64,000 nt of DNA from a virus, in the IMG/VR virus record IMGVR_UViG_3300045988_098461, positions 1-64,000 of that record. One strand, written 5' to 3'. The position numbers were made by a program, and so were the translations under genes. Numbering within the stretch: the stretch's first letter is position 1; every line of letters begins with the position of its first letter. Below are positions 155 to 63,203 of this stretch, piece after piece. The notes under the pieces were generated by a model. The model was given only the letters and a program-made list of their open reading frames with translations. It ran no database searches and was not told the origin of the DNA.

Positions 155-781
155 TTACTTTATGGTAATGCAACAGCGCACTCTGTACCATCCTCTAATA
201 TCAGAAACATCAATAGTAAAGTCTGCAAAATTAGGGTTTACGGAGCGGCATATGACCTTCGTATCATCACCCTTTGCTTGGAATACATTCTTAATGATAG
301 CTCCGTTTACTGTATCGAGCACATAGGTGTTGCCCCATTCAATGAAAGCCTTCTCGTTAATCTTCTGCACAAGAACCTTACTACCGCTTGGGTACTCTGG
401 CGACATACTATCCCCCGTGACTGTGATTGCCATCGAAATATTCTCAATAGGAGAAATCATCATTTCGCAATCATGCTTCTTTATCTGATACTCGAAATTG
501 TTTGGTGTACCACCTTGCGCTGCAACGGGAAGAAGCGGTACTTTATAGAATTTGCCTTCCTCCTGTAGCTTATCGGTGTTAGTCATAAAACCCTCACCCG
601 TTTCTAACCAATCAGCATTAATATCAGGGAAGACCTCTGAAACAGCTCTCTTTGTCTTCAATGATAATTTATCTGTATTATAGAAATGACTGATGCTCAC
701 ACCAATCTTTTCCTGAAACTGAGCCATTGACATTCCCTTGTGCTCAGCCACCTTTTTTGCTCTTTCCAATAGTTCACCCAT
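155..781 (-). CDS. CI/LexA-type phage repressor (N-terminal HTH, C-terminal S24 peptidase)
   Basis: 208-aa ORF. HTH-like MSMAQFQEKIGVSISHFYN, then VTGDSMSPEYPSGSKVLV (S24 GDSM serine motif). Divergent from the early operon. Confidence 0.8.
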   Translation of the reverse strand: MGELLERAKKVAEHKGMSMAQFQEKIGVSISHFYNTDKLSLKTKRAVSEVFPDINADWLETGEGFMTNTDKLQEEGKFYKVPLLPVAAQGGTPNNFEYQIKKHDCEMMISPIENISMAITVTGDSMSPEYPSGSKVLVQKINEKAFIEWGNTYVLDTVNGAIIKNVFQAKGDDTKVICRSVNPNFADFTIDVSDIRGWYRVRCCITIK

Positions 782-1707: not shown

Positions 1708-2275
1708 TTTCGAAGAGTGGGTAGAAACCAATTATCCTTTAATCAGTAAGCGAAAAGAGCCAGTATATTCACTAACTTCTGCTCTTAAAGATACCAATAC
1801 ATTAGCATCTTTAGATAATGATTATGGAGAAGGGTTCGCTCTAAAATGGGTAAAAGCTCAGTTATTAGATACCTTTAGACTTCTCGGTGCTGGTAGTTCT
1901 GTTAATAGTCTTCAAATTGTCTTCATGGCAAGACGAATAAGAAGTATCTATTATTATCTATCTCCTAGCGAACTTACCTACTTTTTGGAATCATTGGTAG
2001 GTGGAGGATATGGAAAGATATATGTAGGTAATACTATCAATCCTCAGAACCTTATGGAGGCATTACAGAAGTTCGATTCCGAAAGAGCACAGATGTTATC
2101 ACAGATGGAATCCGATGCTAATAAGGAGCGAAAAAAGAACGTAAAGGCTGATATTAATGCTGTTAATGCTATCTGTAATAAGATACGCAAGGAATTGACT
2201 ATTAAGCTTATGGGTTCTAGGGCTGGAAATGAATACAAATCGTTTAACGTTAATAAAAACAACAATGAAAATTGA
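1628..2275 (+). CDS. hypothetical protein
   Basis: Start chosen at ATG 1628 within track ORF 1538..2275; overlaps the previous gene. Start uncertain. Confidence 0.4.
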   Translation: MTKYSNNSSEQSLISQEQQQRSLTLINFEEWVETNYPLISKRKEPVYSLTSALKDTNTLASLDNDYGEGFALKWVKAQLLDTFRLLGAGSSVNSLQIVFMARRIRSIYYYLSPSELTYFLESLVGGGYGKIYVGNTINPQNLMEALQKFDSERAQMLSQMESDANKERKKNVKADINAVNAICNKIRKELTIKLMGSRAGNEYKSFNVNKNNNEN

Positions 2276-5099: not shown

Positions 5100-5834
5100 A
5101 TGCAATTAATTACATTAGGTAGTGGAAGCTCTGGTAATGGGTATATCCTACAGAATGATGATGAAGCACTTATCATAGAATGTGGAATGCCCTTAAAAGA
5201 TGCCGTAGAAGCACTTGGAGGAAATCTCAAAAAGGTTGTCGGTTGCTTGATTACTCATAGCCACGGCGACCACGCAGGGTTTATTCTTCAGTATGCACGA
5301 CCTTTCAATATCTTTGCAACCAAAGGTACTTTGGAAGAAAAGAAGATTAAGGAAGGTGATTTTCATTACAATGCCATACCGATGCTTAAAGAGTTTCGTA
5401 TTGGTAACTTCGTTATAAAAGCTTTCGATACAGTTCACGACACCAAAGAGCCTTGCGGCTTTATCATTTATCATCCCGATATGGGAGATATGCTTTTTCT
5501 CACGGATAGCCATCATATCAAATATAAGCTATCGTTTCCGCTTGACTATATCCTTATCGAATGCAATCACATGGATTCTTTGGTTGATAAGAGTGTGAGA
5601 GAGGGTATTATTCCTAAGAAGATTGGCATTAGAGCAAAAGCTACTCACATGAGCTTGGAAAGATGTCTGAACTGCCTTAAAGAGAATAAATTGGAAAGAA
5701 CGAAAGCGATAGTGCTTATTCACATGAGTGCAAACAACGGCGATGCCGTATTATTCTCTTCTGAGGTAGCGAAAGCCACGGGCAAGGCGGTTCACGTTGC
5801 GAAGAAAGGATTCTCATTGGAGCTGATAAAATGA
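5100..5834 (+). CDS. MBL-fold metallo-hydrolase (candidate recombination nuclease)
   Basis: ITHSHGDHAG (HxHxDH motif) near the N-terminus. 244 aa. Confidence 0.8.
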   Translation: MQLITLGSGSSGNGYILQNDDEALIIECGMPLKDAVEALGGNLKKVVGCLITHSHGDHAGFILQYARPFNIFATKGTLEEKKIKEGDFHYNAIPMLKEFRIGNFVIKAFDTVHDTKEPCGFIIYHPDMGDMLFLTDSHHIKYKLSFPLDYILIECNHMDSLVDKSVREGIIPKKIGIRAKATHMSLERCLNCLKENKLERTKAIVLIHMSANNGDAVLFSSEVAKATGKAVHVAKKGFSLELIK

Positions 5835-21100: not shown

Positions 21101-24100
21101 TACCATCCTTATCCAACAAGAACTTAGAGCCAACAACATTATTATACGACTCAACGGCTGCATTATAATCATCCTCCAGTCGCTTGCTATCCTGTGCGAT
21201 AGCCGCAATCTCCGAGCTATCCAAGTAGCCATCAGAGGTAAAATCATCGAAAGCCTTCTTGTTGTTAGATACGGTCGTTCCGAGGGTATTCAAGTTGCTC
21301 TGTGTCGTCTTAATCTCTTCTTGCGCCTTCTCAGCAGCTTTCTTGGCTTCCTCTGCCTTCGTGTCATCGGTATACTTGCTAGCCAATTTCCAATCGGCAA
21401 TATCGAACTTTTCTCCTTCTGCCTTGGCGGTGGAACACTTCAAGATTTCATTCTTGTAGGTACTTCCATCGCTAGGATAGGTGGCATTGACCCACATATC
21501 GTTCACGTCGTATGGGGGAACTGGCTGTGAACCGAAAATGCGTCTCTTGTCTGCGATATACTTATCCAAGGTTTTGCCATCATAGGTGGACTTTATATCC
21601 AATTCTCCCTTGATGGTAACTTTCTTCGTCTCGCTATCAAACTTGACATAGGATTCACCCTCGTAGTTATTGGCACTAGTAGGTCGGTCTCCGAAGTACA
21701 TATCTCCGTAGACGTGGAAGAAAGCCTTGTTCGTGGAATGGTTCACGCCATAGTTCACATACTCCTTGTTATTAAAGGTGTAGCCGTCAACTCCGTGATA
21801 GAGTGTTATGCAAGGGGAATAGGTGTCAACGGCAGAGAATACCAAGCAACTTTGCCTTGTGATGTTCGTTCTATTACCGCACTGATTCAGAATGTCATCA
21901 ACCATAGGCTCATCGCTGGCTGCGTCCTTGTCGATGTCCGATAAATCCACATAATGATATTTCTTGCCATCTATCTCCACTGCCTCGGAAGACACACCGA
22001 TGACTAGCCTCCAATAGTAATGGTTGCCTACGTTATGATACTTTCCTGCCGTAAGATTGAAGCTCTTGCTCCTTGCTTGGTCTCCAACCTTCCATTTATT
22101 CTCCACCTTTGAGCCATCTTGCTCACCAAGGAAGTAGCATCTGTAAGCCTTCTGACTAACACCATCATAGGTAATATTCACCTCCTCAACCTTCAATATT
22201 CGGTTACTGCCTACTGGGGTGATGAACAATTCACCACCCAATGTGTCTGTATGCAATATTTCCAAGGTCTCGAAGATTGCTTTCATTCTGACTTGTAGAT
22301 AATCTGTGGTTAGATGGGTGTTATCTAGTTCGTCAAGAGTCCAATCCCCGTTCGCCCCGACCTTCATTCCCTTCAAGAACTTCTGGAGCTTTTCCCAAGT
22401 GATAGTGCCTTTTGCAATGTCATCGAACTGCTTAGATATAAAATTATCACTTCCGTACTTCGCAATGAGTTTTCTTAGCTGGGAAACGGAATATCCACCT
22501 CCGTTACCGCTACTTCCTCCGCTCGCAATAATTGTCTGTACGTCTTCTTTGAGCTGCGTGATAGTGCCCTTAATTACTTGATTGCCTATTGTAATCGACT
22601 GAATAAAGTCGTAATCAATATTAGTCGATAGCTTCAACACTCTTGTCGCAAGCTCATATCCGTGTCCGTCCTTATACGTTATACTCTGACCGATTTGTAG
22701 TTGAGGGTTATCTTCCAAGAATACATCAGAATATGATTTAACCTCATAGTTATTCAAATCAGAGAGTAATCGCACAATCTCCTCCTTTGCTTTCTCTAAC
22801 AATCTATTTTGAGCATCCTCGTAATAGATAGTATCAGCCATTGCAATATTATAGAGTACCGTGATATTACACTTCAAAGAAGGTTTGCTTTCTCCACGAG
22901 GAATGAGCATTTCTGCTTCATTTGTAGGTATAATGACCTCATTATCCTCTTGATAGATAATTTCGTAATCACCAGCCAATACAGAGAAATTACTATCACT
23001 AACATCATCTGACGTATGCGAGGATGATGCCTCTTTATGATAGATAAGTTCAAAGCCTACATATTCGCCGTTAGAGCCACGACCAGCAAGTGGAGTAGAA
23101 AGCGCACCCGTATTAAAGTTTGGTTCAAATGAGCATCCGATATTCTTACCATTGATAAGCAAATCATCTGTAACCTCAAAGTCATACCAATAATGAGTAA
23201 CGCCATCATCAACTGTTGTATTGATAATTGTCTTTCCTTCTACTTTTTCTGTAGCAGGATAAGCCAATTTCATATACCATACTGTAAAGGTCTTATATTC
23301 CTTAACCGAGCCATCAGCATTATAAGAAATAGGTATTTTCTTATTATTATCATCAAGCACATACTTAACTCGCCCACGTACATTATATACATAGGTATTG
23401 AGCGAAGGATAAATCTGAGAAAAATCAAGCACCTTCGTAAAGAGAGGTTCTTTCGTTTTATCCGCTCTAAGGTCAAGGGTAGAATACTTATCAATAGAGT
23501 AGGAGCGTTCCTTTCCGTCTATTAATATTGTACCATTGCCCTCATCTAATTGCAGACGAATATCGCCAGATGAAACATTCTCACCTTTGCTATTTACTTG
23601 TGTAATATTTCTAGTACCGCCGAAGATAGAGAAAGCGTTATAGTAGCCTTCTTTGCTATTATTGATACTTGGTACACCTACATTCTTTCCAACCTCTAAA
23701 ACGACAGGAGTTGCACCGATTAAGACCTTACCGATGTAGATAATTTCATCATCATAGTCAATATGCCATTCGCAGTTATCTCCAATAGCATTTGTAATTG
23801 CTGTAAGTGCAGAAATAAAATCGTTATCGCTGAATGATACATTGACAGTATTTGCCGTTACATTTGAAAAGATAACTTTCCATCCGCATTCGCCAAACAT
23901 TAAATCCTTGTTAAGGAAATCTTTTATTTTTTCGCTAAGTGCAGATGTAGTACCTACGAAAGACCATACATTTTGCTTTACCTCTACATTCTGTGAATTA
24001 CGAGTATAGATAAAGAATGGGGTCTTCGATAGAATCATCTTCGGATGCTGGAATTGAGGAGTGTACTTCCAAGAGCATTCATCTGATTGAGTAGGCTCAT

Positions 24101-24317
24101 ACGATTCCAAGAGAAGAAACTTCCTAGTAACCTCTCTTACTTTATCAATCTTATATGTATAATTGATATACGCACCAATGGGCAGAATAACCTTCTCAGC
24201 AGCAGAGAAAGACAGAGAAATGTAATCTGACTTAGACATTTCCTGTTCTCTCTTAGCCGCTGATGTTACTTCTGCTTGCATCAGCAATTTATCGTTAATA
24301 TCATATATCTTAATCAT
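15189..24317 (-). CDS. giant tail tip/tail fibre protein with C-terminal S74-type intramolecular chaperone
   Basis: 3042 aa. Repeated KPTxLSGYGITDG fibre motifs, repeated SGSGNAVTA..KSG.TI..TKG units, duplicated ~50-aa modules ending GGGLN. C-terminus SDIRLKQDL...GWIAQ matches the autoproteolytic chaperone pattern. Confidence 0.85.
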   Translation of the reverse strand: MIKIYDINDKLLMQAEVTSAAKREQEMSKSDYISLSFSAAEKVILPIGAYINYTYKIDKVREVTRKFLLLESYEPTQSDECSWKYTPQFQHPKMILSKTPFFIYTRNSQNVEVKQNVWSFVGTTSALSEKIKDFLNKDLMFGECGWKVIFSNVTANTVNVSFSDNDFISALTAITNAIGDNCEWHIDYDDEIIYIGKVLIGATPVVLEVGKNVGVPSINNSKEGYYNAFSIFGGTRNITQVNSKGENVSSGDIRLQLDEGNGTILIDGKERSYSIDKYSTLDLRADKTKEPLFTKVLDFSQIYPSLNTYVYNVRGRVKYVLDDNNKKIPISYNADGSVKEYKTFTVWYMKLAYPATEKVEGKTIINTTVDDGVTHYWYDFEVTDDLLINGKNIGCSFEPNFNTGALSTPLAGRGSNGEYVGFELIYHKEASSSHTSDDVSDSNFSVLAGDYEIIYQEDNEVIIPTNEAEMLIPRGESKPSLKCNITVLYNIAMADTIYYEDAQNRLLEKAKEEIVRLLSDLNNYEVKSYSDVFLEDNPQLQIGQSITYKDGHGYELATRVLKLSTNIDYDFIQSITIGNQVIKGTITQLKEDVQTIIASGGSSGNGGGYSVSQLRKLIAKYGSDNFISKQFDDIAKGTITWEKLQKFLKGMKVGANGDWTLDELDNTHLTTDYLQVRMKAIFETLEILHTDTLGGELFITPVGSNRILKVEEVNITYDGVSQKAYRCYFLGEQDGSKVENKWKVGDQARSKSFNLTAGKYHNVGNHYYWRLVIGVSSEAVEIDGKKYHYVDLSDIDKDAASDEPMVDDILNQCGNRTNITRQSCLVFSAVDTYSPCITLYHGVDGYTFNNKEYVNYGVNHSTNKAFFHVYGDMYFGDRPTSANNYEGESYVKFDSETKKVTIKGELDIKSTYDGKTLDKYIADKRRIFGSQPVPPYDVNDMWVNATYPSDGSTYKNEILKCSTAKAEGEKFDIADWKLASKYTDDTKAEEAKKAAEKAQEEIKTTQSNLNTLGTTVSNNKKAFDDFTSDGYLDSSEIAAIAQDSKRLEDDYNAAVESYNNVVGSKFLLDKDGNETTYKTDLVSAKATLDSAKNELITYLSDIVSRYNASDSNGKATIKAAAAQKYTNFTNAYKAFYDKLGVANNYITSNLFDGLNTKLITNMAGLEYIKAALVDGDTVVKGGLILSTLIALRNDKGNVTAGINGADTKENGIALWLGGKAIDKQASTTTEEEKKIAAKSLLRFDGTGYFANGNLWWDADGILHADPTSFIINKDNVGVQLALFAPIWKSGTTDTTKLANVLSIDPQKPFTHLDVSGNVTTEGSLKIGGIYLSYDSANNALRLSKDAAGKEAANFYALGGITAYGKGAGTTGGGGLNASVISYARIIKGDYTDADLTSIPNAYAIKALSSRIDNIATELGGLNLSWNNITGKPSTFTPSAHTHKWTEITDRITKVSQLTNDKGYLTAHQSLASYYTKAEIDAKGYTTNKGTVTSVALTLPTGLTCATKTITTSGTFAISLASGYSIPTTAKQTAWDGAVSAKHTHSNKSVLDGITSTKVTCWDSAYDWYALITTDEETADGVINKWNEVVSFLANIAQTDTLSGIVDGINKSISDEVTRAKKAEGVNASGISTNKTSITTLQGYFTSGSAKKALQLTNTRKLWGNSFNGTADINGSIIVPDGKYISIGNIKMEYDATNKALKITNTTTNEVANLYTSGGVSAYGVGTSSSSGGGLNGSVKSYSNALKLTSESLSEIASAYSIKALDSRISSLEGGSAMDVSVSGSGNAVTAISKSGTTIIVTKGTTFLTSHQSLASYLTKTDAASLYQPKGNYLTAHQSLDGYVNAIAVSGSGNAVTAVTKSGKTITFTKGSTFSLNGHTHTFASLTSKPTSLSGYGITDGVNAVSVTGSGNAITTASISGHTLTLTKGSSFSLSNHTHYVGTTQVQGSSAEQALTGITKIDNILKLSKASVTVNTSYKAEQNRLVIYGTTYGNDANYIKSAGKLSYGDGGPQLVFSTCDNPDASGIQSAALVYTDHNTIGAGVSLSFVTNQGDAYFIAPHIKALTAFQGNLAWSYITNKPTTLSGFGITDGLRSVTQPSGSNVFVTGISTSGTAITYTKSYTKKSLSAVGTSGWTNASIDGNIIPDMSFIAYWNGAYSGTSSNLAYCNKGAFGSFAIKNSLAFSELTSKPTTISGYGITDAYTKSQVDTIAAKYLPLTGGTLTGQLKIEASALNGAYNGLRIGDDCYIGDCNFGNTIGLMGVGNNNAGMVKFGKGGMQFGYNGLNHIASTTAQWTNLNADLLDGWHKNNIVWSGAVNSNTASLSHYWAKLFDITVTGNQYDDRNFTFLFSNGYNDTFSVVVLRIRQNGAKDSGAYNFIISLRELVGNMSSRLRVYYNNATGNVQLWGNCQHQYGSLSYTIIKKTGRTSADFTSQGTLVTNISFSAAQSLPATTGDSPYTLLDGATRIGIVNQADKLVTARTIWGQSFNGTANVSGALSGATTISASNTISTTLQNGALKIGNKLTPISAIDAQVIFNTGAAIRFGETNWDWNQWAGLKYTHSNKTIYLGIADKSVFTANSAQSNGTLKFPGIKTITPDSGARIGGSGGDLYLGNANNSNWVKVQNICSHNGSNYWYIYQNGNAHFNNIGLTGATINGDATINGNLSVTGLISNKGILPANYEFNNKGTSCYVSADALCSGITAITDSIQINQVTVQYSNDSGNSWTNYPMSNDAKFNMYASNAGLNQIYLGYNVITGNNDAEKLAQVKKNELMVTFEISNNCYSQVYFASVDISSGIDTICTIETLNNSGAVVGTYTKHITGWNQINYIYLLPNGNAGYDLGSNSNRYIRFKFKHDQKTTALRNAVINKIRIFSFTKYSFPTDRFMGHTGHIYNFDYNMNTYFPNSILAKGGVTAYQSSDIRLKQDLRKLDYLGIIKAMGGTYGFAWKKDNTRSIGWIAQHVLCNPHLKDIVETDEKGYYKINYWSPKLIATAFGAIEQVGDEVSRLKARVVFLESEVQRLSGDKEDCNKKRLDNKNINSLN

Positions 24318-24763: not shown

Positions 24764-27700
24764 TTAATACTTATCCTTCATTAATTTATACATACTTGCG
24801 ATGTCTTCACGTATCAATATAATAGGGGCAGTATTCTTATTGATTGCTTCCAACTGCTGTAATCCTTGATACTGAATATCTCGCATTTCAGAGATATTAT
24901 TATATGTCTGCTCAGCATAGATGCGCAAGAAAGAAACATCAACTGCGATAGCCTTACGAACCTCATTACCTTGCTCTTGGGCAATTTGCACCGCATAACC
25001 GATACCGATAAGGCTGCTTGCTTGGTCTGCGGTGATAGCTTCGATAGCCTTGCCCGTTGCCGTCTGCTGAGATTGCGCCTCCTTATACCCTGTTATTGCA
25101 GCAATATTATCTCTTATCTTTAAACCTTCATTAACGATGTTATCGTACTCTTTTTTAAGAGCATTCAAATCATCATCCGAAAGCTGTCCCTGCTTCATCT
25201 TATCAGCCCACTTTTCATAAAGGACTTTAAGTCTCTTGTTTGCAATATCATCAACGGCAAAGTTAAGCATTGACTTATTGAGCATCGTTGTGAAATCATT
25301 TGCGAAATCTTGCGCCGATTTACTCATATCCATAAGATTGCTAATAAAGTTGTCCTTTAACGAATCGAAGGTTGTCTGCGTAAGATTCTGATTGATTTTA
25401 TCAGTCAGCTCTTCAAGCTTCTCGGCAAGGTCGGTATAATTCTCCCAATATTCAGTTTTATCATATTTACCTTGGTCGGTCATATTCTTCCATACATCTT
25501 GGTTGTATGTGCGAATATCCTTCATCTGCTCTGGAGTGAGCTTATAAATATCCTCCAAGGAATTTACCTTGCTTATCGTAGAATTAACATAACCGCCTCT
25601 TACTGCTGATTGCTGTGCCAACGTGCGATTGATAGCAGCATAATCCTGTGCCGACAGATTCCAATAATAAGCATTAGAATGATGCGAGCCATGGTAACCC
25701 ATCTGTGCTTGAAGAATTTCCATACTCTGCTTATTGATTTGCTTCTGTGCATCATAGGCTTTTTGATAATTGCTGACGGCACTCATTCCCGAAGTCTTAT
25801 CAATCGAACTCTTCAACTGCTCAATAGAGTATTGCAATCGCTCGTTTGATTCTGTAAGGCGATTCGTAGTCTCGGCAACCTCCTTCGCATTACTTCCATT
25901 GCCGATACCAAAAGCACTACCAAGCGATTTGATAGCCCCTATGCCGTTAATAGCTGCCCCGATATAGTTGCCCGTAGCAAAGTCTGATGCCGCTTGCGAA
26001 CCCTTATTGAAGGCATCTGCACCACTTTTAAGCTTCTTTCCAAGGTCTGAATCACCGAAGCCGAGAACATCAATCAATTCACTTGCTTCTTGTAGCTTCT
26101 TAGCAACGTTACCGATGCTTTCTGCCCATTCATTAGCAATCTGCTTAATTGACTTTCTTGCCTTATCTTGTGATACATTTGCATCTTCTTGTGCCTTCTT
26201 TACGTCCTTTGTTGCCTTTCCGACTTTTACCTCAGAAACAGCGAGCTCATCAAAGAGTTTCTTTAATTTTTCGAGCTGTTCGTTGCTGAGATTCATCTTA
26301 TTCTCATTAAAGAGTGCGCTCTTATTCTGAGAGGTTATCTTATTGGTGCTTACAGATACCCCCGTCTCCGCAAAGACTTTTTGTATAGCAATTTTCGTAG
26401 AAGACTGCTGTTCTTGTGCATTATATTGCTCTACTGTAGCTTTTCTTAATCGCTCTTGTGCATCAGCAGCCTCTTGTAAGAGCCGATTATATTCACGCAC
26501 CTTCTCGTTAGACCAACCCCATTTATCGGTCTGCTCAGAAATAGCATCATCAATCTTACCAATCTGTTCAGATACAACCTTCATATCATCAATATCAAGA
26601 GTACCCGAACCGAGAAGGTCTTTGAGCTTTTTTCTTAGGTCTTCGAGATAAGATTTGCTCAATCTTCCCATATCAGAGAAAACAGAATCCCAGTTGATAG
26701 AATCCTTGAAATCATTAAAGTTGAGCTTCTTTAGCTGCTCTTCAAGGTCAGTTTTCAACTTTGCTTCCTCGAAAATATTACCCTTTGCCCTTGCTTCTTT
26801 GATTTTCTCGTTATATTCCTCAACGATGGCGAGCTTCTGCTGTTCGAGATTGCCATACTCCTTCAGGTATTCACGATATGATTTTAATTCATCAGCATAA
26901 ATCTCATTATTATATAATTCTACAGTCTTCTGTTCAATGATGGTGTACTGCTCGGTAATCTTCTGAATATTCTTTGAATCAAGATGGTTCTTATCATCCC
27001 AAGTCTCAGCCTTGCCACCCTTTGCCTTAATAACAGACTGCTGTGCGTCAAATTCAGCTTTCTGTCGGTCACGCTCTGCCTTGATAGCTGCATTCTTTCG
27101 CTCTTCAATCTGCTCAATTTCTTTGGATAGCTCTCTTTTGCGCTCGGCAATAACCTTCTCTTCGCCTTCTTTCATCGCCTTAATCTTTGCATCGGTTACC
27201 TCCTGTTCCAAAGATTGCCAAGCTTTTGCTCTTTCATAAGCATTCTTATAGATAACATCATCAAGCTTCCCTTCTGCTGAATTAATCTGCTTCTGTTGAG
27301 TAGCATCTTTCTTAGCATCCGATTTTGCTTTATTCGCTAGAGAACGTTTTGCTGCTGCCTCTTGTCTGATGAGCATTCTCTGTTCGCTATTCTGCTGAAC
27401 TTGCGTTCTAAGAACTTGCATTCTAAGTTCACGCTCTGCGGCAATATCCTTCAAAGATTGAGTATGCAATTTAGCTTGCTTTTCATGTAACTCAACGAGC
27501 TGTTGCTGCTGCTTTATCTGAAAATCGTATTTCTGCTTAACAAGAGCCTTTGCCTCCTCAATTGCAGCGATTTTCTCCTTTCCTTGTAAGGTATATATTT
27601 TATTTCTTACATCGGCAATTTTTCCATCAAGTTTGAGCTGAGTTTCCTTATTCTTATTGATAGCGATTTGCGTTTCTTGAATCTTACCTGCAAGGGAAGC

Positions 27701-29908
27701 CGCTTGCTCTGCCTTTGTAAGTATTCCATTGAATGCCGCTCCTAACTTCTTTGATAAATCTTCATTGGTAAAAGCATCATAGATAGTCTTTGTTGCGCCA
27801 ATAACACCTGATACTTGTGTTTTGAATACATCAATAACAGTTTCACCAGCACCCTTAATTCCATCCCAAGTCTTTTTAAGACCAGCAGTAAAGGTGTCCC
27901 AGTCCATATTTAATACACCTTTAATGGTAGTTCCGAGACCTCCAATAAGATTTACCGCTGCTTTCACGGCAGTTTTGAACGTCTTTACGAAGTTATTACC
28001 GAAGTCACGAAGGGGAGCGTTTGGCTTTGTGAAGCACTTATACAAGTATTCTCCGAAGATAATCACAATATCTGTGATAGACTTAGCAAGAGAACCAAAG
28101 TAAGCCATCAGCTTTGTATAGACCTTCTGACCCTCTGCGGATTTAGTCATCCATGTATGCACCGCCTTGAAAGCAAGAGCGATTGCAGCAATTACCGCAC
28201 CCACAGGTGTTGCACACATTCCCCATAGAGCCTTTGTTACAGACTTGATGGCAGTAAGAGACCCCGTTACGGGAATACCAAGAGCCTTGAAAGCTTCACC
28301 GACCTTACCAATCTCACCTTGCAACTTACCATTGGCAGTCATTACATTAATGATTCCGTCTTTAAAATCATTGAGACCAGACTTTGCTTGTGTAAACTCC
28401 TCGCTAAAACGCTGACCAATGGAAGAGCCGCTTATCTTGGATTTTAGCTCATCAATAGGCTGTGTGATTTTATCCTTTATACTCTGCCCAAAATCAGAGA
28501 TATTTTGCAAGGAATCGGAAATCTGATTACGTAATCTGCCAATAAAAGTCTCTTCGTTCTTCTCACGAATAGCCTCTTGTAATACAGATATATTATTCTT
28601 CGTCTTTTCAATCTCAGATTGCAAATTTCCCAAATCCGCTTTCTGCTTATCACCAAGAGGCTTTCCGCTGAATTTATCGGTTTCCGCTTCAAGCTCCTGC
28701 AATCTTTGCTTACTCTCGTCAAGTTTATTATTAAGCTCAGATAGAGAAGTATCTTCTATATTGATGCTTACAGTTGAAGATGAAGAATCAGGTTGAACGA
28801 TAGCTTTTCCACCTTGTATCTGATTTGCAGCTTCAAGCAAGGTCGTGTACTCACGGAGGTCAGCATTAAGTCTTTGCTGCTCTCCACTCATTGCGTTTAT
28901 CTTAGATTGTAAAGAATCTATATTATCCTGCGCTACCTGTATAAGTTGATTATAGTAATTAGCACCTTGCCCAGATTGATTATCCTCAGAAGAGAGATTT
29001 GATATAGCTTCCTTATAGCTATTAATTTTCTCTTTCTGAATCTCTATTTTCTTTGTTGCCTCTTCAATATTCTTAGCATAATCAGTAGAGCCAAGCTTTT
29101 GCTGAATATCATTGATGGCTTGCTCATATAGTTTAATATCAGCTTTAAGTTCCTTTGTGCTTTCAGATTGCATTCGTTCAATCTCGGCACGACCCGAAGC
29201 AACGGAAATATACTGTTGCAAGGCTTCTGTAAGATGTTTGGTTGCTTCTACGTTCTGATTCTCAGCTTCGGCATTCTGTGTTGCCGCCTCGGCATTTGCT
29301 ACGTGTGCTGCCGCTTCTGCCGAGGTAGCAGTTGCCGCCGTTGTAGCCGTTGCTCCTACAGCAATATTCGTTGCAGATTGTACACTATTAGCACTTGTGC
29401 TTGCAACCGAGAAAGCACTTAATGCCTGATATGCACCATTTACCTGAGAGATAGAATTTCTAACACCATCATAAGATTCAACAAGGTCTTTTACATCACC
29501 TTTCGCCAATTCCAAAGAGTGCTTTTGAGCATCAATCTGCTTTGTAAGCGAACCGAATGCCTCTGAGCCCTTTTCTGTCTTAGCTAACTGCTCGTTAAGT
29601 TTACCGATAGTACCTTCAATGGTTTCTACTCGTCTATTGGCAGTATCAATCATTTCTGGTACTACCTGTATCCCCTTTGTGGCTTCATCCATAGCAGATT
29701 TAAGAACCTGCATAGCCTTGGTGGTCTTTGTCGCAAGGTCTTCATCGGATTGCGCCACATCGTTAAGTGCCTTATTCATTCTCTGAGATAAGGCTTCTGT
29801 ATCAACGCCGACACGATTCAAACCATCACAAAGCTTATCAAGTGATGCTTGAATATCGGAAATATCCATCTGTCCGCTGATTCCAAGTATTTCATCTGCT
29901 GCTGCCAT
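24764..29908 (-). CDS. tail tape measure protein
   Basis: 1714 aa, mostly coiled coil, with central hydrophobic/glycine-rich segments. Follows the chaperone pair. Confidence 0.85.
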   Translation of the reverse strand: MAAADEILGISGQMDISDIQASLDKLCDGLNRVGVDTEALSQRMNKALNDVAQSDEDLATKTTKAMQVLKSAMDEATKGIQVVPEMIDTANRRVETIEGTIGKLNEQLAKTEKGSEAFGSLTKQIDAQKHSLELAKGDVKDLVESYDGVRNSISQVNGAYQALSAFSVASTSANSVQSATNIAVGATATTAATATSAEAAAHVANAEAATQNAEAENQNVEATKHLTEALQQYISVASGRAEIERMQSESTKELKADIKLYEQAINDIQQKLGSTDYAKNIEEATKKIEIQKEKINSYKEAISNLSSEDNQSGQGANYYNQLIQVAQDNIDSLQSKINAMSGEQQRLNADLREYTTLLEAANQIQGGKAIVQPDSSSSTVSINIEDTSLSELNNKLDESKQRLQELEAETDKFSGKPLGDKQKADLGNLQSEIEKTKNNISVLQEAIREKNEETFIGRLRNQISDSLQNISDFGQSIKDKITQPIDELKSKISGSSIGQRFSEEFTQAKSGLNDFKDGIINVMTANGKLQGEIGKVGEAFKALGIPVTGSLTAIKSVTKALWGMCATPVGAVIAAIALAFKAVHTWMTKSAEGQKVYTKLMAYFGSLAKSITDIVIIFGEYLYKCFTKPNAPLRDFGNNFVKTFKTAVKAAVNLIGGLGTTIKGVLNMDWDTFTAGLKKTWDGIKGAGETVIDVFKTQVSGVIGATKTIYDAFTNEDLSKKLGAAFNGILTKAEQAASLAGKIQETQIAINKNKETQLKLDGKIADVRNKIYTLQGKEKIAAIEEAKALVKQKYDFQIKQQQQLVELHEKQAKLHTQSLKDIAAERELRMQVLRTQVQQNSEQRMLIRQEAAAKRSLANKAKSDAKKDATQQKQINSAEGKLDDVIYKNAYERAKAWQSLEQEVTDAKIKAMKEGEEKVIAERKRELSKEIEQIEERKNAAIKAERDRQKAEFDAQQSVIKAKGGKAETWDDKNHLDSKNIQKITEQYTIIEQKTVELYNNEIYADELKSYREYLKEYGNLEQQKLAIVEEYNEKIKEARAKGNIFEEAKLKTDLEEQLKKLNFNDFKDSINWDSVFSDMGRLSKSYLEDLRKKLKDLLGSGTLDIDDMKVVSEQIGKIDDAISEQTDKWGWSNEKVREYNRLLQEAADAQERLRKATVEQYNAQEQQSSTKIAIQKVFAETGVSVSTNKITSQNKSALFNENKMNLSNEQLEKLKKLFDELAVSEVKVGKATKDVKKAQEDANVSQDKARKSIKQIANEWAESIGNVAKKLQEASELIDVLGFGDSDLGKKLKSGADAFNKGSQAASDFATGNYIGAAINGIGAIKSLGSAFGIGNGSNAKEVAETTNRLTESNERLQYSIEQLKSSIDKTSGMSAVSNYQKAYDAQKQINKQSMEILQAQMGYHGSHHSNAYYWNLSAQDYAAINRTLAQQSAVRGGYVNSTISKVNSLEDIYKLTPEQMKDIRTYNQDVWKNMTDQGKYDKTEYWENYTDLAEKLEELTDKINQNLTQTTFDSLKDNFISNLMDMSKSAQDFANDFTTMLNKSMLNFAVDDIANKRLKVLYEKWADKMKQGQLSDDDLNALKKEYDNIVNEGLKIRDNIAAITGYKEAQSQQTATGKAIEAITADQASSLIGIGYAVQIAQEQGNEVRKAIAVDVSFLRIYAEQTYNNISEMRDIQYQGLQQLEAINKNTAPIILIREDIASMYKLMKDKY

Positions 29909-49470: not shown

Positions 49471-50319
49471 ATGGAAGCAACTATTTTATTAGGCAATCAT
49501 AATGATTGTAAGATTGATACGGGAAGATATGTAGAAACGGACGTTATGGGTTGGAAAGCCACTATCTATGTACCGAGTGGTATTGATAATGAGCAGATTC
49601 AGAAAGCCCTTGATTACGCTTATTCTACTCTCTGTCAGAGTTGCTATATGGAGTTTATCTTGGCAGACAACTTCCTTCTTATCTCTAAGGAGGTCTTTGA
49701 TAAGAAGAAGGTGTTTAAGTTCAATCTTAAAAAGCACTTTACTGAATGCCAAACATCTATTCGTGATACGATGAAGTTGTATGAGCGAAATATGGATGAA
49801 GACTACTATAATGAGTATTCTACCTATCTTTGGGATTTGATTAAGGATAAGGTTGAGAAGTTACGAAAGATGATTGAGGATAAGCTTCGCAATCTGAAAT
49901 GTAAGTATAACCCTTATCTCTGCTCGTATGTCATTATGATTCAGAACCTCGTACAGCAGATTAATGATACCCATATACACGTTATGGAGATTACCGAAAG
50001 GGAGTATGGAGTTGATATTGCTCCAAGCTACGAAAATTATCGGGCTAAAATGGCATTCACGCAAGCGGATAATTGTCTGTACGACATCATGCACGATGAA
50101 GCAGAGAAATTCCGTGACAATATCGTTAAAGATAAGAAGGTTATCGCCGTATGGTCTGATATAACAAGAACTCTCTATGACCCTATCAATGCAAAGAAGG
50201 CTCGTTTCTCGGCTTTCTATAGTATGCCTAAGGAAACACAAGCTCTCTATAATTTGAGAGAGGAGGATGGCTTCTGCGAGCCTAAAGAAGGTACTAAGAA
50301 ATTCAAGAAAGGAGCGTAG
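49471..50319 (+). CDS. hypothetical protein
   Basis: 282-aa ORF. Confidence 0.5.
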   Translation: MEATILLGNHNDCKIDTGRYVETDVMGWKATIYVPSGIDNEQIQKALDYAYSTLCQSCYMEFILADNFLLISKEVFDKKKVFKFNLKKHFTECQTSIRDTMKLYERNMDEDYYNEYSTYLWDLIKDKVEKLRKMIEDKLRNLKCKYNPYLCSYVIMIQNLVQQINDTHIHVMEITEREYGVDIAPSYENYRAKMAFTQADNCLYDIMHDEAEKFRDNIVKDKKVIAVWSDITRTLYDPINAKKARFSAFYSMPKETQALYNLREEDGFCEPKEGTKKFKKGA

Positions 50320-50322
50320 GGT

Positions 50323-51066
50323 ATGGAGTTAGATAATATTTACTTCGGAGATTGCATTAACCTTATGCGTGATATTCCTGATAAAAGCATAGATTTATGT
50401 GTTACGGATGCACCATATCTCCATAATAAATCGCCACTTAGTCCTACGTATGATGGGAGTGAATGGAATCAGAAAAGTTCCTTTGGAAAATCGGAGCTTT
50501 ATAAATATGGTGGTGATATGATGGGAGGGATGAGTTGTTTTGGCGAAGAAGAAATAGATAAGTTCCTTGATGCATTAAAGCCGAAAATGAAGATAATGAA
50601 TGCTTATATGTTCTGTTCGGAAGAACAGGTACCGTATTATTGTAACTGGGCTAATAAGAATGGCTTGATGTTTACAATACTCGTTTGGGAAAAGCCGTTA
50701 TCTATCATTAACAAAAATCGTTTTTCGCAGAACCTGGAGTACATAGTACGAGTATATGATTACGGTACTGCTCTTAATCGGTTAAATAATAACTTGTATT
50801 ATAATCGGGTAAAGAAAGAAAAACCGATTAACGGGAAAAGTAAGAATCATCCAACAGAAAAACCTGTCTCAATTATGCAAGAGTTCGTTGAACTGAGCAG
50901 TAATGAGGGTGATGTGGTCTTGGATGCGTTCTGTGGCTCTGGTACGCTTGCGATAGCGTGCATTAATACTAACAGACATTTCATTTGCTTTGAGAAGAAT
51001 AAAAAATTCTTTGATATTGCTAAGAAACGGGTTAAAGAACGGAAGCAACAACAAACAATTTGGTAA
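50323..51066 (+). CDS. DNA methyltransferase (beta-class N6A/N4C type, orphan)
   Basis: Motif IV-like VTDAPY near the N-terminus and motif I FCGSGT near the C-terminus. No adjacent restriction gene. Confidence 0.8.
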   Translation: MELDNIYFGDCINLMRDIPDKSIDLCVTDAPYLHNKSPLSPTYDGSEWNQKSSFGKSELYKYGGDMMGGMSCFGEEEIDKFLDALKPKMKIMNAYMFCSEEQVPYYCNWANKNGLMFTILVWEKPLSIINKNRFSQNLEYIVRVYDYGTALNRLNNNLYYNRVKKEKPINGKSKNHPTEKPVSIMQEFVELSSNEGDVVLDAFCGSGTLAIACINTNRHFICFEKNKKFFDIAKKRVKERKQQQTIW

Positions 51067-51699: not shown

Positions 51700-52563
51700 A
51701 TGGACGAAATTAAAATTTTGCACAAATCTACTTTCCTAGGTAAGGAAATAGATGTATGGGGAACTTTTGATAACCCATTATTTCGGGCAAGTGATGTAGC
51801 AGATTGGCTACATAACACAAATGTCTCTAATATGGTTAAGAAGGTTGATGAGGACGAAGTGACTAAGTTTAACTTAGGCAGTCGTCAAGGTGAAACTCTT
51901 TTTCTTACAGAGAATGGTCTTTATGAGATACTTATGTTATCTCGCAAGAAGGAAGCCAAGCAGTTTAAGAAGGGAGTAAAAGCTATCCTTCACGAAATCC
52001 GCACCAAGGGCGGCTACATTGCTTCTTCGGTCAATGATACTCCCGAAGCTATCATGGCACGAGCCTTGAAGATTGCGGATGAGACATTGAAGCGGAATGA
52101 GCAAAGAGTTCGTGAGCTTGAAGCTTAGACCGAGCAGCAGGCACAGACCATCGGCATTCAGCAGAAAGAACTGACTGTTGCCGCACCAAAGGTAAAGTAC
52201 TACGATGATACACTTGCATCAACGGACTGCCTTACCACCACACAAGTTGCTGATGACCTCGGTATCAGCGCAAGAGCACTCAATCAACAACTTTCCAATG
52301 CAGGTATTCAATACTTTCAATCAGGTTCTTGGCATTTGAAGGGCAAGTTCCGTGAATGGCAGCTCGCAAGCACCCGAACCTACAATTATATCAAGGGTGA
52401 TGGTTCTACGGGCACAAAAGTAAACCTCGTATGGAATCAACGTGGCAAGCGTTTTATTCTTGCTCTCTATAACAACGACTTTAATGTGAAAGATGCTATC
52501 GCTGAAATCAACGGCGAGAAGAGAGCTGCGCTTGTATCTAAAAACAATCAGTCTAACTTTTAA
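51700..52563 (+). CDS. BRO-N / KilA-C antirepressor interrupted by in-frame TAG (52126-52128)
   Basis: N-terminal BRO-N pattern (FRASDVADWL...LFLTENGLYEILMLSRKKEAKQF). After the TAG the same frame encodes APKVKYYDDTLAS...TTTQVADDLGISARALNQQL...WNQRGKRFI (KilA-C pattern) up to TAA 52561-63. Confidence 0.6.
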
Positions 52564-57341: not shown

Positions 57342-58130
57342 ATGATAGGAGCAATTATAGGTGATATTGTAGGCTCTAAATATGAGTTTAATAACACATT
57401 TGATTATAACTTTAAACTATTTGACGAAGGTTGTAATTTTACAGATGATACTATCTGTACAATAGCCGTAGCAGATGCTATTCTTAAAGAAGGTGGTGAT
57501 AAAAAGCCGAATGTCGGAGATTATTGTATCTCGCTTCAATACTGGTGTCAGAAGTATCTAAACCCAATGGGTGGGTATGGCGCAAGCTTCGCAAAATGGG
57601 TTCGTAGCTCTAATCCACAGCCTTATGATAGTTTTGGAAATGGAGCAGCTATGAGAGTTAGTCCTGTGGGTTGGGCATTCAAAGAAAATTCTGATATCAT
57701 TCATCAGGCAATGATGAGCGCAAAGGTTTCGCATAGCCATGTTGAAGGATTGATTGGTGCTATTGCGGTAGCAGATTGTGTACATGCTTTAAAAGCATAT
57801 AAACAAAAAGATTTGATTAGGGTAATAGCAAAACAATATTATGGCTCTGATTGGAATAAGAATCTTGTACCAAGAGGTAGATGGGCAGAAACTTGCCAAG
57901 AGTGCGTTCCTCTTGCCTTTAGAATAGTCCTTGATAGTGATAGCTTCGAGGACGCAATCAGAAATGCTGTATCCTACGGCGGTGATAGCGATACGATGGG
58001 AGCAATCGTTGGTTCAATCGCTCAGCCACTCTTTGGTATTCCACAAGAAATGAAGGAAAAAGCATTGAACTATCTCCCTTTGGATATGAAGAATGTAGTA
58101 ACTAAATTTATTGATAGATATGGTGAATAA
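57342..58130 (+). CDS. ADP-ribosylglycohydrolase family protein
   Basis: IGAIIGDIVGSKYE, FTDDT, GNGAAMRVSP, SHSHVEG and GGDSDTMGAIVGS are the canonical ARH metal/substrate motifs. Confidence 0.85.
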   Translation: MIGAIIGDIVGSKYEFNNTFDYNFKLFDEGCNFTDDTICTIAVADAILKEGGDKKPNVGDYCISLQYWCQKYLNPMGGYGASFAKWVRSSNPQPYDSFGNGAAMRVSPVGWAFKENSDIIHQAMMSAKVSHSHVEGLIGAIAVADCVHALKAYKQKDLIRVIAKQYYGSDWNKNLVPRGRWAETCQECVPLAFRIVLDSDSFEDAIRNAVSYGGDSDTMGAIVGSIAQPLFGIPQEMKEKALNYLPLDMKNVVTKFIDRYGE

Positions 58131-58492: not shown

Positions 58493-61297
58493 TTAATATC
58501 CGATATTGCTATCCTTTACATAAGATAAATCTCTTATTTCTTGCCCTATAACCTCGCAGTCTATGTAGGTCTTTCCACCTTCTTCATAAACCTTTGTTAT
58601 TCGCATTCGTGTTCCTCTCTGAAAGAGTGTTTCGTGCTCGGAACTATATGTTGAGAAACGACTTACTCCATCCCAACTTCTTTTATCACCACAACCGAAA
58701 GCAGAGAAAGGTTCTACGTAAGCAGCCTTTGTTCCTTTTGGTGCATATATGTTCATAATAACACTTCGAGTATTGAAGCCTTTTCCTTTTCGGCTACCAG
58801 TTGACATAAAACCACCTTCTTGCATTTCCATTCCAACAAGGTCTTGAAGGTTTTTTGGCATAGAACCGCCAGCAAACTTAATTCGTGATTCAATAACTTT
58901 CATTCCATCATCACCTCTTGTAAACCACATATCGGTAGGAAGTTCGTTCTTTTCTATATAGCTTGTTATATTATTAACCTTCTCTATGAACCTTTCCTTC
59001 GTTTGGTAACTATCATATTTTCTTCCTTGTAATGGTTCATTTACATCGCAATAATGATGAGTGTATTCGTATGTGAAATCTTTTTCTTTTTCTGTTGCTG
59101 CTATCCATTGTTTGGATGCAACATCTACGAGGGTTTTATCAGCTTTTGCACCATTACCCTTATCCCATACTGCGGCATCTTTCCTTGATTGAGAGAATCG
59201 GTCTGTATCAAATACAACATTCTTCGCATTTCGTTTTGCTTTCGCATTAATAAGCGTTTCTTTCTTTTGCTTAGCTTCATAAAGCAACTGCTCAGCAAGG
59301 GTCTTATCCTTTGCGAGCATGGCGTGTTCAAGGTCATAGATAAGCTTATGATATATCTTGCTCTGTGTCTTATAACCTTTTACGTCAGCATAAGCTTTAT
59401 TGATATTCACCCAATCAATCGCCGTTTTTACCTCATCAAGCTTTTTGAGATATGCCGCTTGCGATACCTTCCATGTAGCATACTTCTGTTGAACCCCGTG
59501 CATATTTCCACCAAGGAAATCAACTGCCTCAAATTGCAATTTGCTAACTTGCTTTTCAAGCGTCAAGCTTTGCCATTGAGCCAACTTTGCTTCTACGGCA
59601 TCATATACTCCGTGCAATTCCTGGGACGTGAACTGCTTATGCCACTTATTAACATCAGGGATGAGAGCAGAAAGTGATAATTCATCCTTTTTAATAGCAG
59701 AAATGGCGTTTGCGAGCGTTTTTGCTTCTTTCCTTGCTAATGTATAGTTAGCAGACTTTAATGCGATTAGAACGGCAGAAACATCGGTTTCTCCGTAATT
59801 AGCAGCCACCTTCATAACATTTATCGCAACCTTGCGGTCAGTCCATGCAAGTTTAGTCTGATAACCTCGCTTGAATCTATCAAACAAAGATGCTATCTCA
59901 GAAGCACTCTTTTTGTCCTTGATTGCGTAGCGGATAGCATAGTAACGTTCAAAGAGGTCTTGGCTCTTTATATCCGTAACAGATTTGCTACCGAGCAGAT
60001 TATGAACTAAGCCATTGTAATAGTCACGTCTATGCTTATCCCATCGGCTCTGTATCTTATCTATCTGCTCTTTAGTTCTAAGGGCGTGACGTTCCTTTGC
60101 CTTCGCAAGTATAAGCTCCTTAGAAGAAACCGCCTTTAACCCCAATTTCTTGCGGTCTAACGGGCTTAAAAGATGTGCCCAATACTTTGTATTATCTTGT
60201 AAGTGCCAAGCCAATTTACCCCTCATTCCTGCCTTCACAATAGCTTCGGAGTTATCCTTAATGTACTGATTGTACTTCTCGGGCATAGTGAGCACGGCAA
60301 AAGGGGATACGTAGTTGCTCATATCCTCGCCAGCCATTAAGCGTTTATAAAACTCCTTTTTCTCATCGCCTTGTATAGTGATAGGGTCTGAGGTACAGAT
60401 ACATTGAGGATGCCAAGAAATCCATACGTAATCTTTCGGGTAGCGACCTTCAAGGTCATTGCATATATCATCAATATTGTGCTGTGGTGATACGTGAATA
60501 TACTGACCGATAACGAACGGCTCGTTCTGCCATCGCTCGTTTCTTGCCTTGTGATATGCGGCATTTATCTCCGTTCTTGCTACTCTGAGAGCATTCTTTC
60601 TTGCCGAGCGGTAAACACCCATGCCTACTTTCTCTAATGGCTCTTCAATAAAGCGCACCTTGCCGTCAATGATTCTACGTCTGCGCCAAGTCACCACATC
60701 TTTCTTCTTTCCGTTCTTCTGAACCTTGATGGTATGATAACGGCGATACATCATATCTGGGTCATTAAGGTATCTGCGAATACTCTTGCCGATTTCCTCT
60801 GCTGATGAGCCTTGTTTGATTCCGTCCGCAATGGTGTTGCTCATAGCCATTTCAAACTCGCTCTTCGTCTGTTGGCAATAGTTCCAAACAATCTGAGCGA
60901 GATTCAATCCATTCTTTGTTTTCAAACGATTTGCAATAAACGTGGCTGCGGCGGTATCTCGTGCGACCCTTATTGCTTTATCAGTAAGCACGGAATAACC
61001 GCCTATAACCATTTCATCGTGGTTATACGCCAACGCAACGCCATCGGTGATGCCGCTCTTATAACAAAGAAGGCTATTCTGATAGTAATCATTAAAGATG
61101 TCGTTCAAACGAGCCTTTAACTGCGGAAAGTTATCAAAGTTAAAAAGCGCATCATCTTCGAGCACATCTTCTCCATAGCCAAGAGAGGTAAGCTTCTTGA
61201 CATAATCGCTGTATAATCTGCCCAACCGCTTATTATAAACGGCGAACAGATTATTCAGTTGTTCTTTCTGTTGTTTTGATGTGAGCTTCTTAGACAT
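58493..61297 (-). CDS. minor head protein (Mu F / SPP1 gp7-like) fused to a C-terminal ADP-ribosyltransferase domain
   Basis: N-terminal ARTEINAAYHKARN and WHPQCICT (MuF pattern). C-terminal WFTRGDD (Arg), FMSTGS (STS-like) and SSEHETLFQRGTRMRI (ExE), in R-S-ExE toxin order. Confidence 0.8.
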   Translation of the reverse strand: MSKKLTSKQQKEQLNNLFAVYNKRLGRLYSDYVKKLTSLGYGEDVLEDDALFNFDNFPQLKARLNDIFNDYYQNSLLCYKSGITDGVALAYNHDEMVIGGYSVLTDKAIRVARDTAAATFIANRLKTKNGLNLAQIVWNYCQQTKSEFEMAMSNTIADGIKQGSSAEEIGKSIRRYLNDPDMMYRRYHTIKVQKNGKKKDVVTWRRRRIIDGKVRFIEEPLEKVGMGVYRSARKNALRVARTEINAAYHKARNERWQNEPFVIGQYIHVSPQHNIDDICNDLEGRYPKDYVWISWHPQCICTSDPITIQGDEKKEFYKRLMAGEDMSNYVSPFAVLTMPEKYNQYIKDNSEAIVKAGMRGKLAWHLQDNTKYWAHLLSPLDRKKLGLKAVSSKELILAKAKERHALRTKEQIDKIQSRWDKHRRDYYNGLVHNLLGSKSVTDIKSQDLFERYYAIRYAIKDKKSASEIASLFDRFKRGYQTKLAWTDRKVAINVMKVAANYGETDVSAVLIALKSANYTLARKEAKTLANAISAIKKDELSLSALIPDVNKWHKQFTSQELHGVYDAVEAKLAQWQSLTLEKQVSKLQFEAVDFLGGNMHGVQQKYATWKVSQAAYLKKLDEVKTAIDWVNINKAYADVKGYKTQSKIYHKLIYDLEHAMLAKDKTLAEQLLYEAKQKKETLINAKAKRNAKNVVFDTDRFSQSRKDAAVWDKGNGAKADKTLVDVASKQWIAATEKEKDFTYEYTHHYCDVNEPLQGRKYDSYQTKERFIEKVNNITSYIEKNELPTDMWFTRGDDGMKVIESRIKFAGGSMPKNLQDLVGMEMQEGGFMSTGSRKGKGFNTRSVIMNIYAPKGTKAAYVEPFSAFGCGDKRSWDGVSRFSTYSSEHETLFQRGTRMRITKVYEEGGKTYIDCEVIGQEIRDLSYVKDSNIGY

Positions 61298-61691: not shown

Positions 61692-63203
61692 TTATTCCTC
61701 CTCTTCTTCTTCATTGGAAACTGACTGTCTTCCACTTGCGGCACTACCAAGTCCCGAAAGAGCTGCCTGCTGCGCCAACGCTTCTTCCTGTTCACTCTTC
61801 ATTTCTTCCTCAACCTTATCAGGGTCATCATTGAGAGGGTTAAGCTCGATGGCACGGCGATTAGAGGTAGATTTCGCACCACCATTGGATGAAGTGATAA
61901 GTTGCAACATTTCAACATCATTCTTTGGTAGATATGGCTTGAAGACTGGTTCAAAGTCAATCTGCTCAGCAACACTCTGGTCGATACCCTTTACGTAAAC
62001 TCCCGTATTACAGATGCCGTTAGCTACGATATTCGAGCGGCGAGTAAACATTTCACCGAACATTTCTGTCTTCAAATCTGCTTTCATATAAGGAGCAGTG
62101 AACATCAAACGGATAGCCGCACCCGAGGTGTTGCTGCCCAAGGTTTTCATATTCTCAAAGCTGATATCGGCTGTTGAGGTGAATGAATAGATGATATTGA
62201 AGAGGTAAGCAATTTCACCCTTCACACTCTCAGGTGATTTATCCCATGAAAGGACGTTCATACTTGCATCACTGCCACCTTGGAAGACTGTGCCTTGCTC
62301 GCCCTTCTCAGCGAAGCCCTCCAAACGACCTTTAATAAAGTACTTAGGCGTGCCGAAGTAGTCATTCGTATCACCCCAATTTGAGATACAAGTTTCCACT
62401 CTGTCAATAGCCCATTGAACATCTTCCCACTCAGCTTGGTCTTGTCTATAGTAAACGACAGGCACTTTGGTGAAGCCATGAGGTAGGGCAGAAATAAGCT
62501 TCCAACCTGCGCCATCAATATTAGTGTACTGATAGCACAATCTATCTGTATATACATCAAAATGTAGCTCAGATTTTCCAAGCTCATCATATACATAGTA
62601 CTCACGGGCGAAGCCGTCCATGATATGGAAATCGTTGAAATGAGGGTAGAGCTTATCGCCGTTTGAAGGTGAAAGCAACTGAACTCGGATTTCGCCTCGA
62701 AGCTTTCCCTCTGCGTCTGTTGGCATATACCATAACTCGGCGCACTCACATTCCTTGAAGAGGGTACGGGCAAGTCGCTTATCGAAGTACTTCATCTTGT
62801 TGTCGTGATAGCAGTGCATGATGCCGTCATATAGCTTCTGCTGCTTATCGTCCATCTTCTTTATATCAACACCATGTGCCGTAGCTTTATAGGTAACGGC
62901 ATTCATAAACAAGAAACCAACAGTAAGATTTGTGATTGACTTCTGAGCAGGGATAGCGATTCTTACTGGCTCAACTTTCTTATCCTTATAAATCGGTTTC
63001 TGTGTGATAGGGTCATACTGACCCGTAGGTACTTTGATTCGTTTCTTAGGACGGAAATCCTCATCAAAGATTTTATGCTTTGATGGATTCCATTGTTCTT
63101 CAAGCACACTCAGTGATGTCTTAAAGCCTTTCTTTCTTGCGGTCAATACCGAGCGGACTGTGTTCGCATCTTGTATTGATACTATCTGTTCTATTGCTCT
63201 CAT
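61692..63203 (-). CDS. portal protein
   Basis: 503 aa between the terminase and MuF genes. Acidic C-terminal tail ending EEEEEE. Confidence 0.75.
   Translation of the reverse strand: MRAIEQIVSIQDANTVRSVLTARKKGFKTSLSVLEEQWNPSKHKIFDEDFRPKKRIKVPTGQYDPITQKPIYKDKKVEPVRIAIPAQKSITNLTVGFLFMNAVTYKATAHGVDIKKMDDKQQKLYDGIMHCYHDNKMKYFDKRLARTLFKECECAELWYMPTDAEGKLRGEIRVQLLSPSNGDKLYPHFNDFHIMDGFAREYYVYDELGKSELHFDVYTDRLCYQYTNIDGAGWKLISALPHGFTKVPVVYYRQDQAEWEDVQWAIDRVETCISNWGDTNDYFGTPKYFIKGRLEGFAEKGEQGTVFQGGSDASMNVLSWDKSPESVKGEIAYLFNIIYSFTSTADISFENMKTLGSNTSGAAIRLMFTAPYMKADLKTEMFGEMFTRRSNIVANGICNTGVYVKGIDQSVAEQIDFEPVFKPYLPKNDVEMLQLITSSNGGAKSTSNRRAIELNPLNDDPDKVEEEMKSEQEEALAQQAALSGLGSAASGRQSVSNEEEEEE

Follow-up and report, generated by a model that had tools for sequence, protein, structure and literature searches.

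A private amber codon interrupts a Bro-N/KilAC regulator gene in a temperate phage of gut Segatella/Prevotella

Introduction

In the 64,000-nucleotide stretch of viral DNA analysed here (IMG/VR record IMGVR_UViG_3300045988_098461; hereafter, the window), a single in-frame TAG divides what otherwise reads as one two-domain phage regulator gene, which raises the question of what this codon does. Three options were put forward in an earlier note on the sequence, namely, a recent nonsense mutation, programmed read-through and decoding of TAG as an amino acid, with the additional suggestion that an antirepressor whose full-length form depends on suppression would represent a new kind of lysis-lysogeny control. 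Here we address the question through the alleles of related phages, the use of TAG elsewhere in the window and the known two-domain regulators of temperate phages.

Results

Structure of the interrupted gene

The gene comprises the following parts.

51700..52128, plus strand: N-terminal half with a 142-aa product, consisting of Bro-N and the start of a Q-rich linker, from ATG 51700 to the amber TAG 52126-28 (Pfam, PHROGs)
52126..52126, plus strand: the mutated base, CAG (Gln) to TAG; T in the window, C in all relatives
52129..52563, plus strand: C-terminal half, now untranslated, consisting of the remaining linker and ANT/KilAC, 144 codons, up to TAA 52561-63 (Pfam ANT, PF03374)

The frame that opens at ATG 51700 runs through ...NEQRVRELEA to the TAG at 52126-28 and then continues for 144 sense codons up to the TAA at 52561-63. 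The N-terminal half matches the Pfam Bro-N family (PF02498) over residues 22-94 with a score of 55.5 bits (gathering cutoff, 25.6; E = 8.8e-15), and the C-terminal half matches ANT/KilAC (PF03374) with 74.7 bits (cutoff, 25.3; E = 9.1e-21), the alignment spanning positions 1-106 of the 108 in the profile and residues 155-258, in frame beyond the TAG. Anti-repressor families of PHROGs are likewise matched by both halves, with the N-terminal one assigned to phrog_130, anti-repressor Ant (E = 2.8e-26). At the base composition of the window, the chance of 144 open codons past a stop is ~8.5e-5; this long open frame and the KilAC match together rule out coincidence and indicate that the interrupted gene is real. 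The earliest in-frame ATG, GTG or TTG downstream of the TAG is the TTG at 52336, well within the KilAC domain. The earlier note had described all of this from the letters, that is, a BRO-N half ending in RVRELEA at the TAG, a KilA-C-type frame open for 144 codons to the TAA and no ATG, GTG or TTG between the TAG and 52336, and each of these points is borne out. A tblastn search of the window disclosed no second Bro-N or KilAC gene able to compensate. Judged by its domains and frame, the window copy is a nonsense allele of the Bro-N/ANT-KilAC family of two-domain regulators (usually annotated 'antirepressor'): the Bro-N and the in-frame ANT/KilAC domains are both present, and what is missing is their union in a single polypeptide, the TAG standing at codon 143.

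The phage and its host

The genes that place the element are listed below.

155..781, minus strand: candidate repressor of the Peptidase_S24 (LexA/CI) type, from Pfam matches in the left-flank locus L054 (offset relative to the window, 7772)
5100-5834, plus strand: 244-aa metallo-beta-lactamase-fold protein of the Anti-Pycsar Apyc1 family (PF23023), in the early region
15189-24317 and 24764-29908, minus strand: giant ORFs of 3042 aa and 1714 aa, respectively, in the structural block, with no Pfam match on record
57342-58130, plus strand: ADP-ribosylglycohydrolase gene (PF03747), near the 934-aa PF03496 protein and on the opposite strand
58493-61297, minus strand: 934-aa protein with an ADP-ribosyltransferase exotoxin domain (PF03496), adjoining the SPP1-type portal gene at 61692-63203

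The element is a temperate phage of gut Segatella/Prevotella, and the source names of homologs and contigs thus correct the Bacteroides host assumed in the earlier note. Just to the left of the window is a tyrosine integrase, and small HTH genes are oriented divergently to the repressor. The structural block holds an SPP1-type portal besides the two giant ORFs. The interrupted gene belongs to an early-type block on the plus strand, where it adjoins DNA methyltransferase genes.

Several other features of the element deserve mention in their own right. The PF23023 protein, which is adjoined by an AAA_23 protein (2229-4193), is a likely anti-defence gene, and the PF03496 and PF03747 proteins may form a toxin-antidote pair in which the toxin is associated with the virion. 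Seen from the repressor, YopX and RtcB RNA-ligase genes (L054 3163-5034) lie beyond the integrase. GC content increases to 0.46-0.48 within the 3042-aa ORF.

Codon 143 in related phages

Used as a protein query, the conceptual read-through product retrieved 2986 homologs at E <= 1e-10. The best of these are intact proteins of 286-287 aa, at most 99% identical to the query; one homolog bears the name of a Segatella copri protein (NCBI) and another that of a Caudoviricetes antirepressor (nr). The TAG column, which the earlier note had proposed to inspect, holds Gln in 20 of the 20 homologs aligned, within the conserved string ELEA-Q-TEQQAQ. At the DNA level, the closest relatives have CAG, and pattern scans permitting either allele returned CAG in all 23 IMG/VR viral contigs and in the one Prevotella MAG that matched. 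In metagenome contigs, a targeted scan for the TAG allele gave 0 matches, and the version of the pattern with Y at the variable position matched 19 contigs; because the TAG-only pattern matched none, all 19 have CAG.

A further alignment was built from the gene copies at 50 loci in other samples. The 49 that cover position 52126 all have C, in agreement with the earlier proposal that the TAG is one transition away from a glutamine codon, and the T at this position is the sole base of the 864-nt gene that is absent from every relative in the 50-locus alignment. Among the full-length copies in this alignment, 29 of 31 are intact. A blastn comparison of the gene with 50,697 GenBank phage records yielded no match, and this phage group therefore has no deposited isolate among those records.

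Constraint and age of the mutation

In the intact relatives, purifying selection acts on the KilAC half, with a median dN/dS of 0.113 and a maximum of 0.152 over 20 pairs. Comparison of the KilAC half of the window with its nearest relatives gives values of 0.05-0.15, and every residue that it encodes also occurs in intact copies. Such lack of relaxed constraint downstream of the stop implies that the mutation is very young, and we consider it highly probable that the TAG is a very recent, private nonsense mutation with no sign of decay in the C-terminal half. The earlier note had named stand-alone Bro-N relatives followed by degraded downstream sequence as a pattern that would refute its reading. 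We did not find this pattern; although it is missing, the intact relatives and the single private transition lead to the same mundane result. Overall, the best explanation of the locus, to which we assign a probability of about 0.9, is a single C-to-T nonsense allele of an ordinary Bro-N + ANT/KilAC phage regulator.

Occurrence of the TAG allele

The foremost alternative is that the TAG is a sequencing or consensus artefact, or else a minority or majority polymorphism in a sample whose phage is mostly or partly CAG. Such a possibility comes to mind with a single-base change that is confined to assemblies from one run and is accompanied by no other private base in the gene. Part of contig k127_28869 (184,885 bp; ENA), assembled from the human-gut run ERR1190652, has exactly the sequence of the window, and TAG is likewise present in a Logan assembly made separately from that run. 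The agreement between two different assemblers on these reads shows that the TAG is not a quirk of one of them. Moreover, 5 contigs (JGI/IMG, Logan, ENA), the longest of 191,837 bp, are recorded as encoding exactly the 142-aa product, so that a JGI/IMG record, too, holds the truncated form, and the site at 52126 is free of homopolymers. Given this concordance, an artefact or a mixed population appears rather unlikely.

All assemblies in which the TAG allele has been seen so far trace to one human-gut run; it might be present in more than one sample. An apparent second sample (L003) was rejected as an artefact, since the gene call ends at the end of the contig and the next base is C, giving CAG. 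Deamination of C to T at a methylated AGCT was likewise discarded as an origin of the mutation: the mutated C comes just after AGCT, not within it. The ENA contig, at 184,885 bp, is long next to the related viral contigs, most of which are ~42-85 kb.

Suppression, read-through and recoding

A second alternative is conditional suppression, whereby the amber codon would be read as Gln whenever a suppressor tRNA is available, for instance, from a co-infecting Prevotella phage in which TAG is recoded to Gln. TAG-to-Gln recoded phages and prophages infecting Prevotella do exist, and the authors who described them proposed that suppressor tRNAs could allow a phage to sense co-infection (bioRxiv 10.1101/2021.08.26.457843). 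Insertion of Gln would, in addition, restore exactly the ancestral residue of the regulator. The amber allele would then act as a fortuitous sensor of co-infection, with the full-length regulator made only when a recoded phage supplies the suppressor tRNA, and regulation of the prophage would in this way be tied to superinfection of its Segatella/Prevotella host by a phage that uses an alternative code. Against this stand the private nature of the allele, which bears no sign of selection or spread, and the fact that no other gene has an in-frame TAG. Furthermore, ARAGORN scans of the window, of its left flank (the 7.8 kb covered by L054) and of 25 related loci detected no tRNA of any kind, and hence no phage-encoded TAG suppressor. 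If suppression took place at all, it would be incidental rather than an evolved control, and we regard conditional suppression, and likewise its sensor version, as very improbable.

The remaining alternative is that TAG is reassigned across the genome or module (code 15), or that read-through is programmed into the gene, the sole argument for either being a single in-frame TAG in a Q-rich context. TAG is a normal stop in this phage. In a greedy non-overlapping set of 89 ORFs, it terminates 14, namely, the 3042-aa ORF and 13 others, and the extensions that read-through would add are short, which is the opposite of the many in-frame TAGs and unused TAG terminators of a code-15 phage. A long extension is found only in the interrupted gene, apart from one adjacent pair of genes in the same frame. 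Coverage by greedy ORFs, which serves as a rough substitute for Prodigal, goes from 90.46% (code 11) to 90.63% (code 15), a gain of 0.17 percentage points, whereas the published criterion for recoding asks that, on contigs of 5-100 kb, the coding density under code 15 exceed that under code 11 by >10%, and a suppressor tRNA is present in ~40% of recoded genomes (bioRxiv 10.1101/2021.08.26.457843).

As for programmed read-through, the hallmark of this mechanism is a conserved stop. The relatives have near-identical flanking sequence and CAG in 49 of 49 cases, and no special RNA structure that could stimulate read-through was detected beyond the TAG (z = -1.19 versus shuffled controls for the 101 nt from the TAG onward). 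At the level that sequence analysis can test, reassignment and programmed read-through are refuted, and we give them next to no credence.

The same-frame gene pair was examined as a possible second instance of recoding. A 282-aa gene (49471-50319, plus strand) ends in TAG and is followed, after one codon, by a gene for an N6_N4 DNA methyltransferase (50323-51066, plus strand) in the same frame; fusion of the two by read-through would give 531 aa. We rejected this candidate, because the 248-codon extension is merely the next gene, with its own ATG and separately called in relatives. The shared frame of the pair is probably a coincidence.

Of the three options initially raised, recent nonsense therefore stands, and programmed read-through and TAG decoding fall, all relatives having CAG, TAG being a working stop and no tRNA having been detected in the window, the left flank or the 25 related loci. 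The proposed new kind of lysis-lysogeny control finds no support either, the locus being accounted for by an ordinary strain-specific nonsense mutation.

Other lesions and domain shuffling in orthologs

The nonsense allele is not the only lesion of this gene. In L051 and L052 (protein P0131), a 1-nt deletion shifts the frame inside the KilAC domain, and in L004-L006 (protein P0028), an IS segment of ~1.38 kb that carries a DDE transposase gene is inserted after nt 742 of the gene, with a 6-bp duplication. Three independent lesions, a nonsense mutation, a frameshift and an IS insertion, have thus struck the KilAC half of one orthologous gene, from which it follows that loss of the domain is tolerated in nature; it may sometimes even be favoured. 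Most copies are nevertheless intact and constrained.

The IS type involved (358-aa DDE_5/DDE_Tnp_1 transposase) was observed at two sites. The copy at 10743-12124 of L004 interrupts the Bro-N/KilAC ortholog, and the one at 14816-15892 of L055 lies between two unrelated genes. In the frameshifted relative L051, a second regulator (AntA + ANT/KilAC, 236 aa) is located directly upstream of the gene (L051 coordinates 1906-2616 and 3001-3863) and may provide redundancy; at the corresponding position, the window has a methyltransferase.

Many loci align to the gene only from ~nt 394 onward. In several related loci (L020, L031, L038, L042, L045 and L048), only nt 394-864, that is, the linker and KilAC, are common, with 96-98% identity, and the N-terminal part is different. 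Conversely, protein P0126 has an identical stretch of the first 142 residues followed by a different tail. These patterns of shared halves point to domain shuffling centred on the Q-rich linker.

Discussion

The nonsense allele can be pictured as follows. A C-to-T transition at 52126 has converted the conserved linker codon CAG (Gln143) into amber TAG in the phages of a single human-gut sample, a lesion that is recent and unique to this copy and that falls in a genome where TAG serves as a regular stop. Translation would end after 142 residues, and the KilAC domain would not be made, except for the trace that basal read-through might yield; bacteria naturally read through UAG at rates that are, as a rule, well under 1%, with a tendency towards insertion of Gln. 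KilAC activity would be lost, and the Bro-N fragment may persist, judging from experiments on homologous architectures. By the same analogy, a KilAC loss-of-function phenotype is expected. For a lysogen, the amber allele could be neutral, mildly deleterious or favoured. The three types of lesion suggest that KilAC is dispensable or costly in some lysogens, which fits the reports of growth and SOS inhibition considered below.

There is also a practical lesson, in that one isolated TAG, in frame and at a Gln position, can lead to a gut phage being wrongly taken for a recoded one. A quick set of tests for such cases consists of the allele in relatives, the count of private bases, the use of TAG as a terminator, the coding gain under code 15 and a tRNA scan.

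[quoted passage not shown] In AriS of Listeria phage phi10403S, the KilAC domain suppresses the host SOS response, and Lin2418 of L. innocua, a Bro-N + KilAC protein, is similar; the N domain of these proteins acts on the phage's own genes, and deletion of either domain lowers the virion yield (PMC9043618). The presence of an S24-type repressor in the present phage would make SOS-linked regulation of this kind relevant. However, the AriS-like systems reside in Bacillota and ours in Bacteroidota, the likeness holds at the level of domains only, and the copy in the window is truncated before the KilAC domain.

Gp07 of Staphylococcus phage Phi11 is comparable in domain order and size, with 274 aa, Bro-N at 25-118 and KilA-C at 160-263 (PMC5944126), against 287 aa, Bro-N at 22-94 and ANT at 155-258 in our case. 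Over-expression of Gp07 in E. coli inhibits growth and causes filamentation, effects that depend on KilA-C; Bro-N by itself acts only transiently (PMC5944126). The genomic settings differ: the Phi11 gene adjoins cro, whereas the gene described here lies ~51 kb from the repressor, beside DNA methyltransferase genes.

The code-15 phages of the Lak and Garnet clades that infect Prevotella share with our phage an in-frame TAG at a Gln position and a Prevotella-type host (bioRxiv 10.1101/2021.08.26.457843). Recoded phages, however, have many in-frame TAGs, genes that are fragmented under code 11 and, often, suppressor tRNAs (bioRxiv 10.1101/2021.08.26.457843), whereas here there is one TAG with no coding gain, TAG is a normal stop and the tRNA scans came back empty. 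Finally, the inactivation of accessory prophage genes by ordinary nonsense mutations, frameshifts and IS insertions follows the same pattern as that seen at this locus, and nothing that we found sets the present case apart from it. The locus holds a loss-of-function allele, at the level of a strain, of an accessory regulator that is common in phages.
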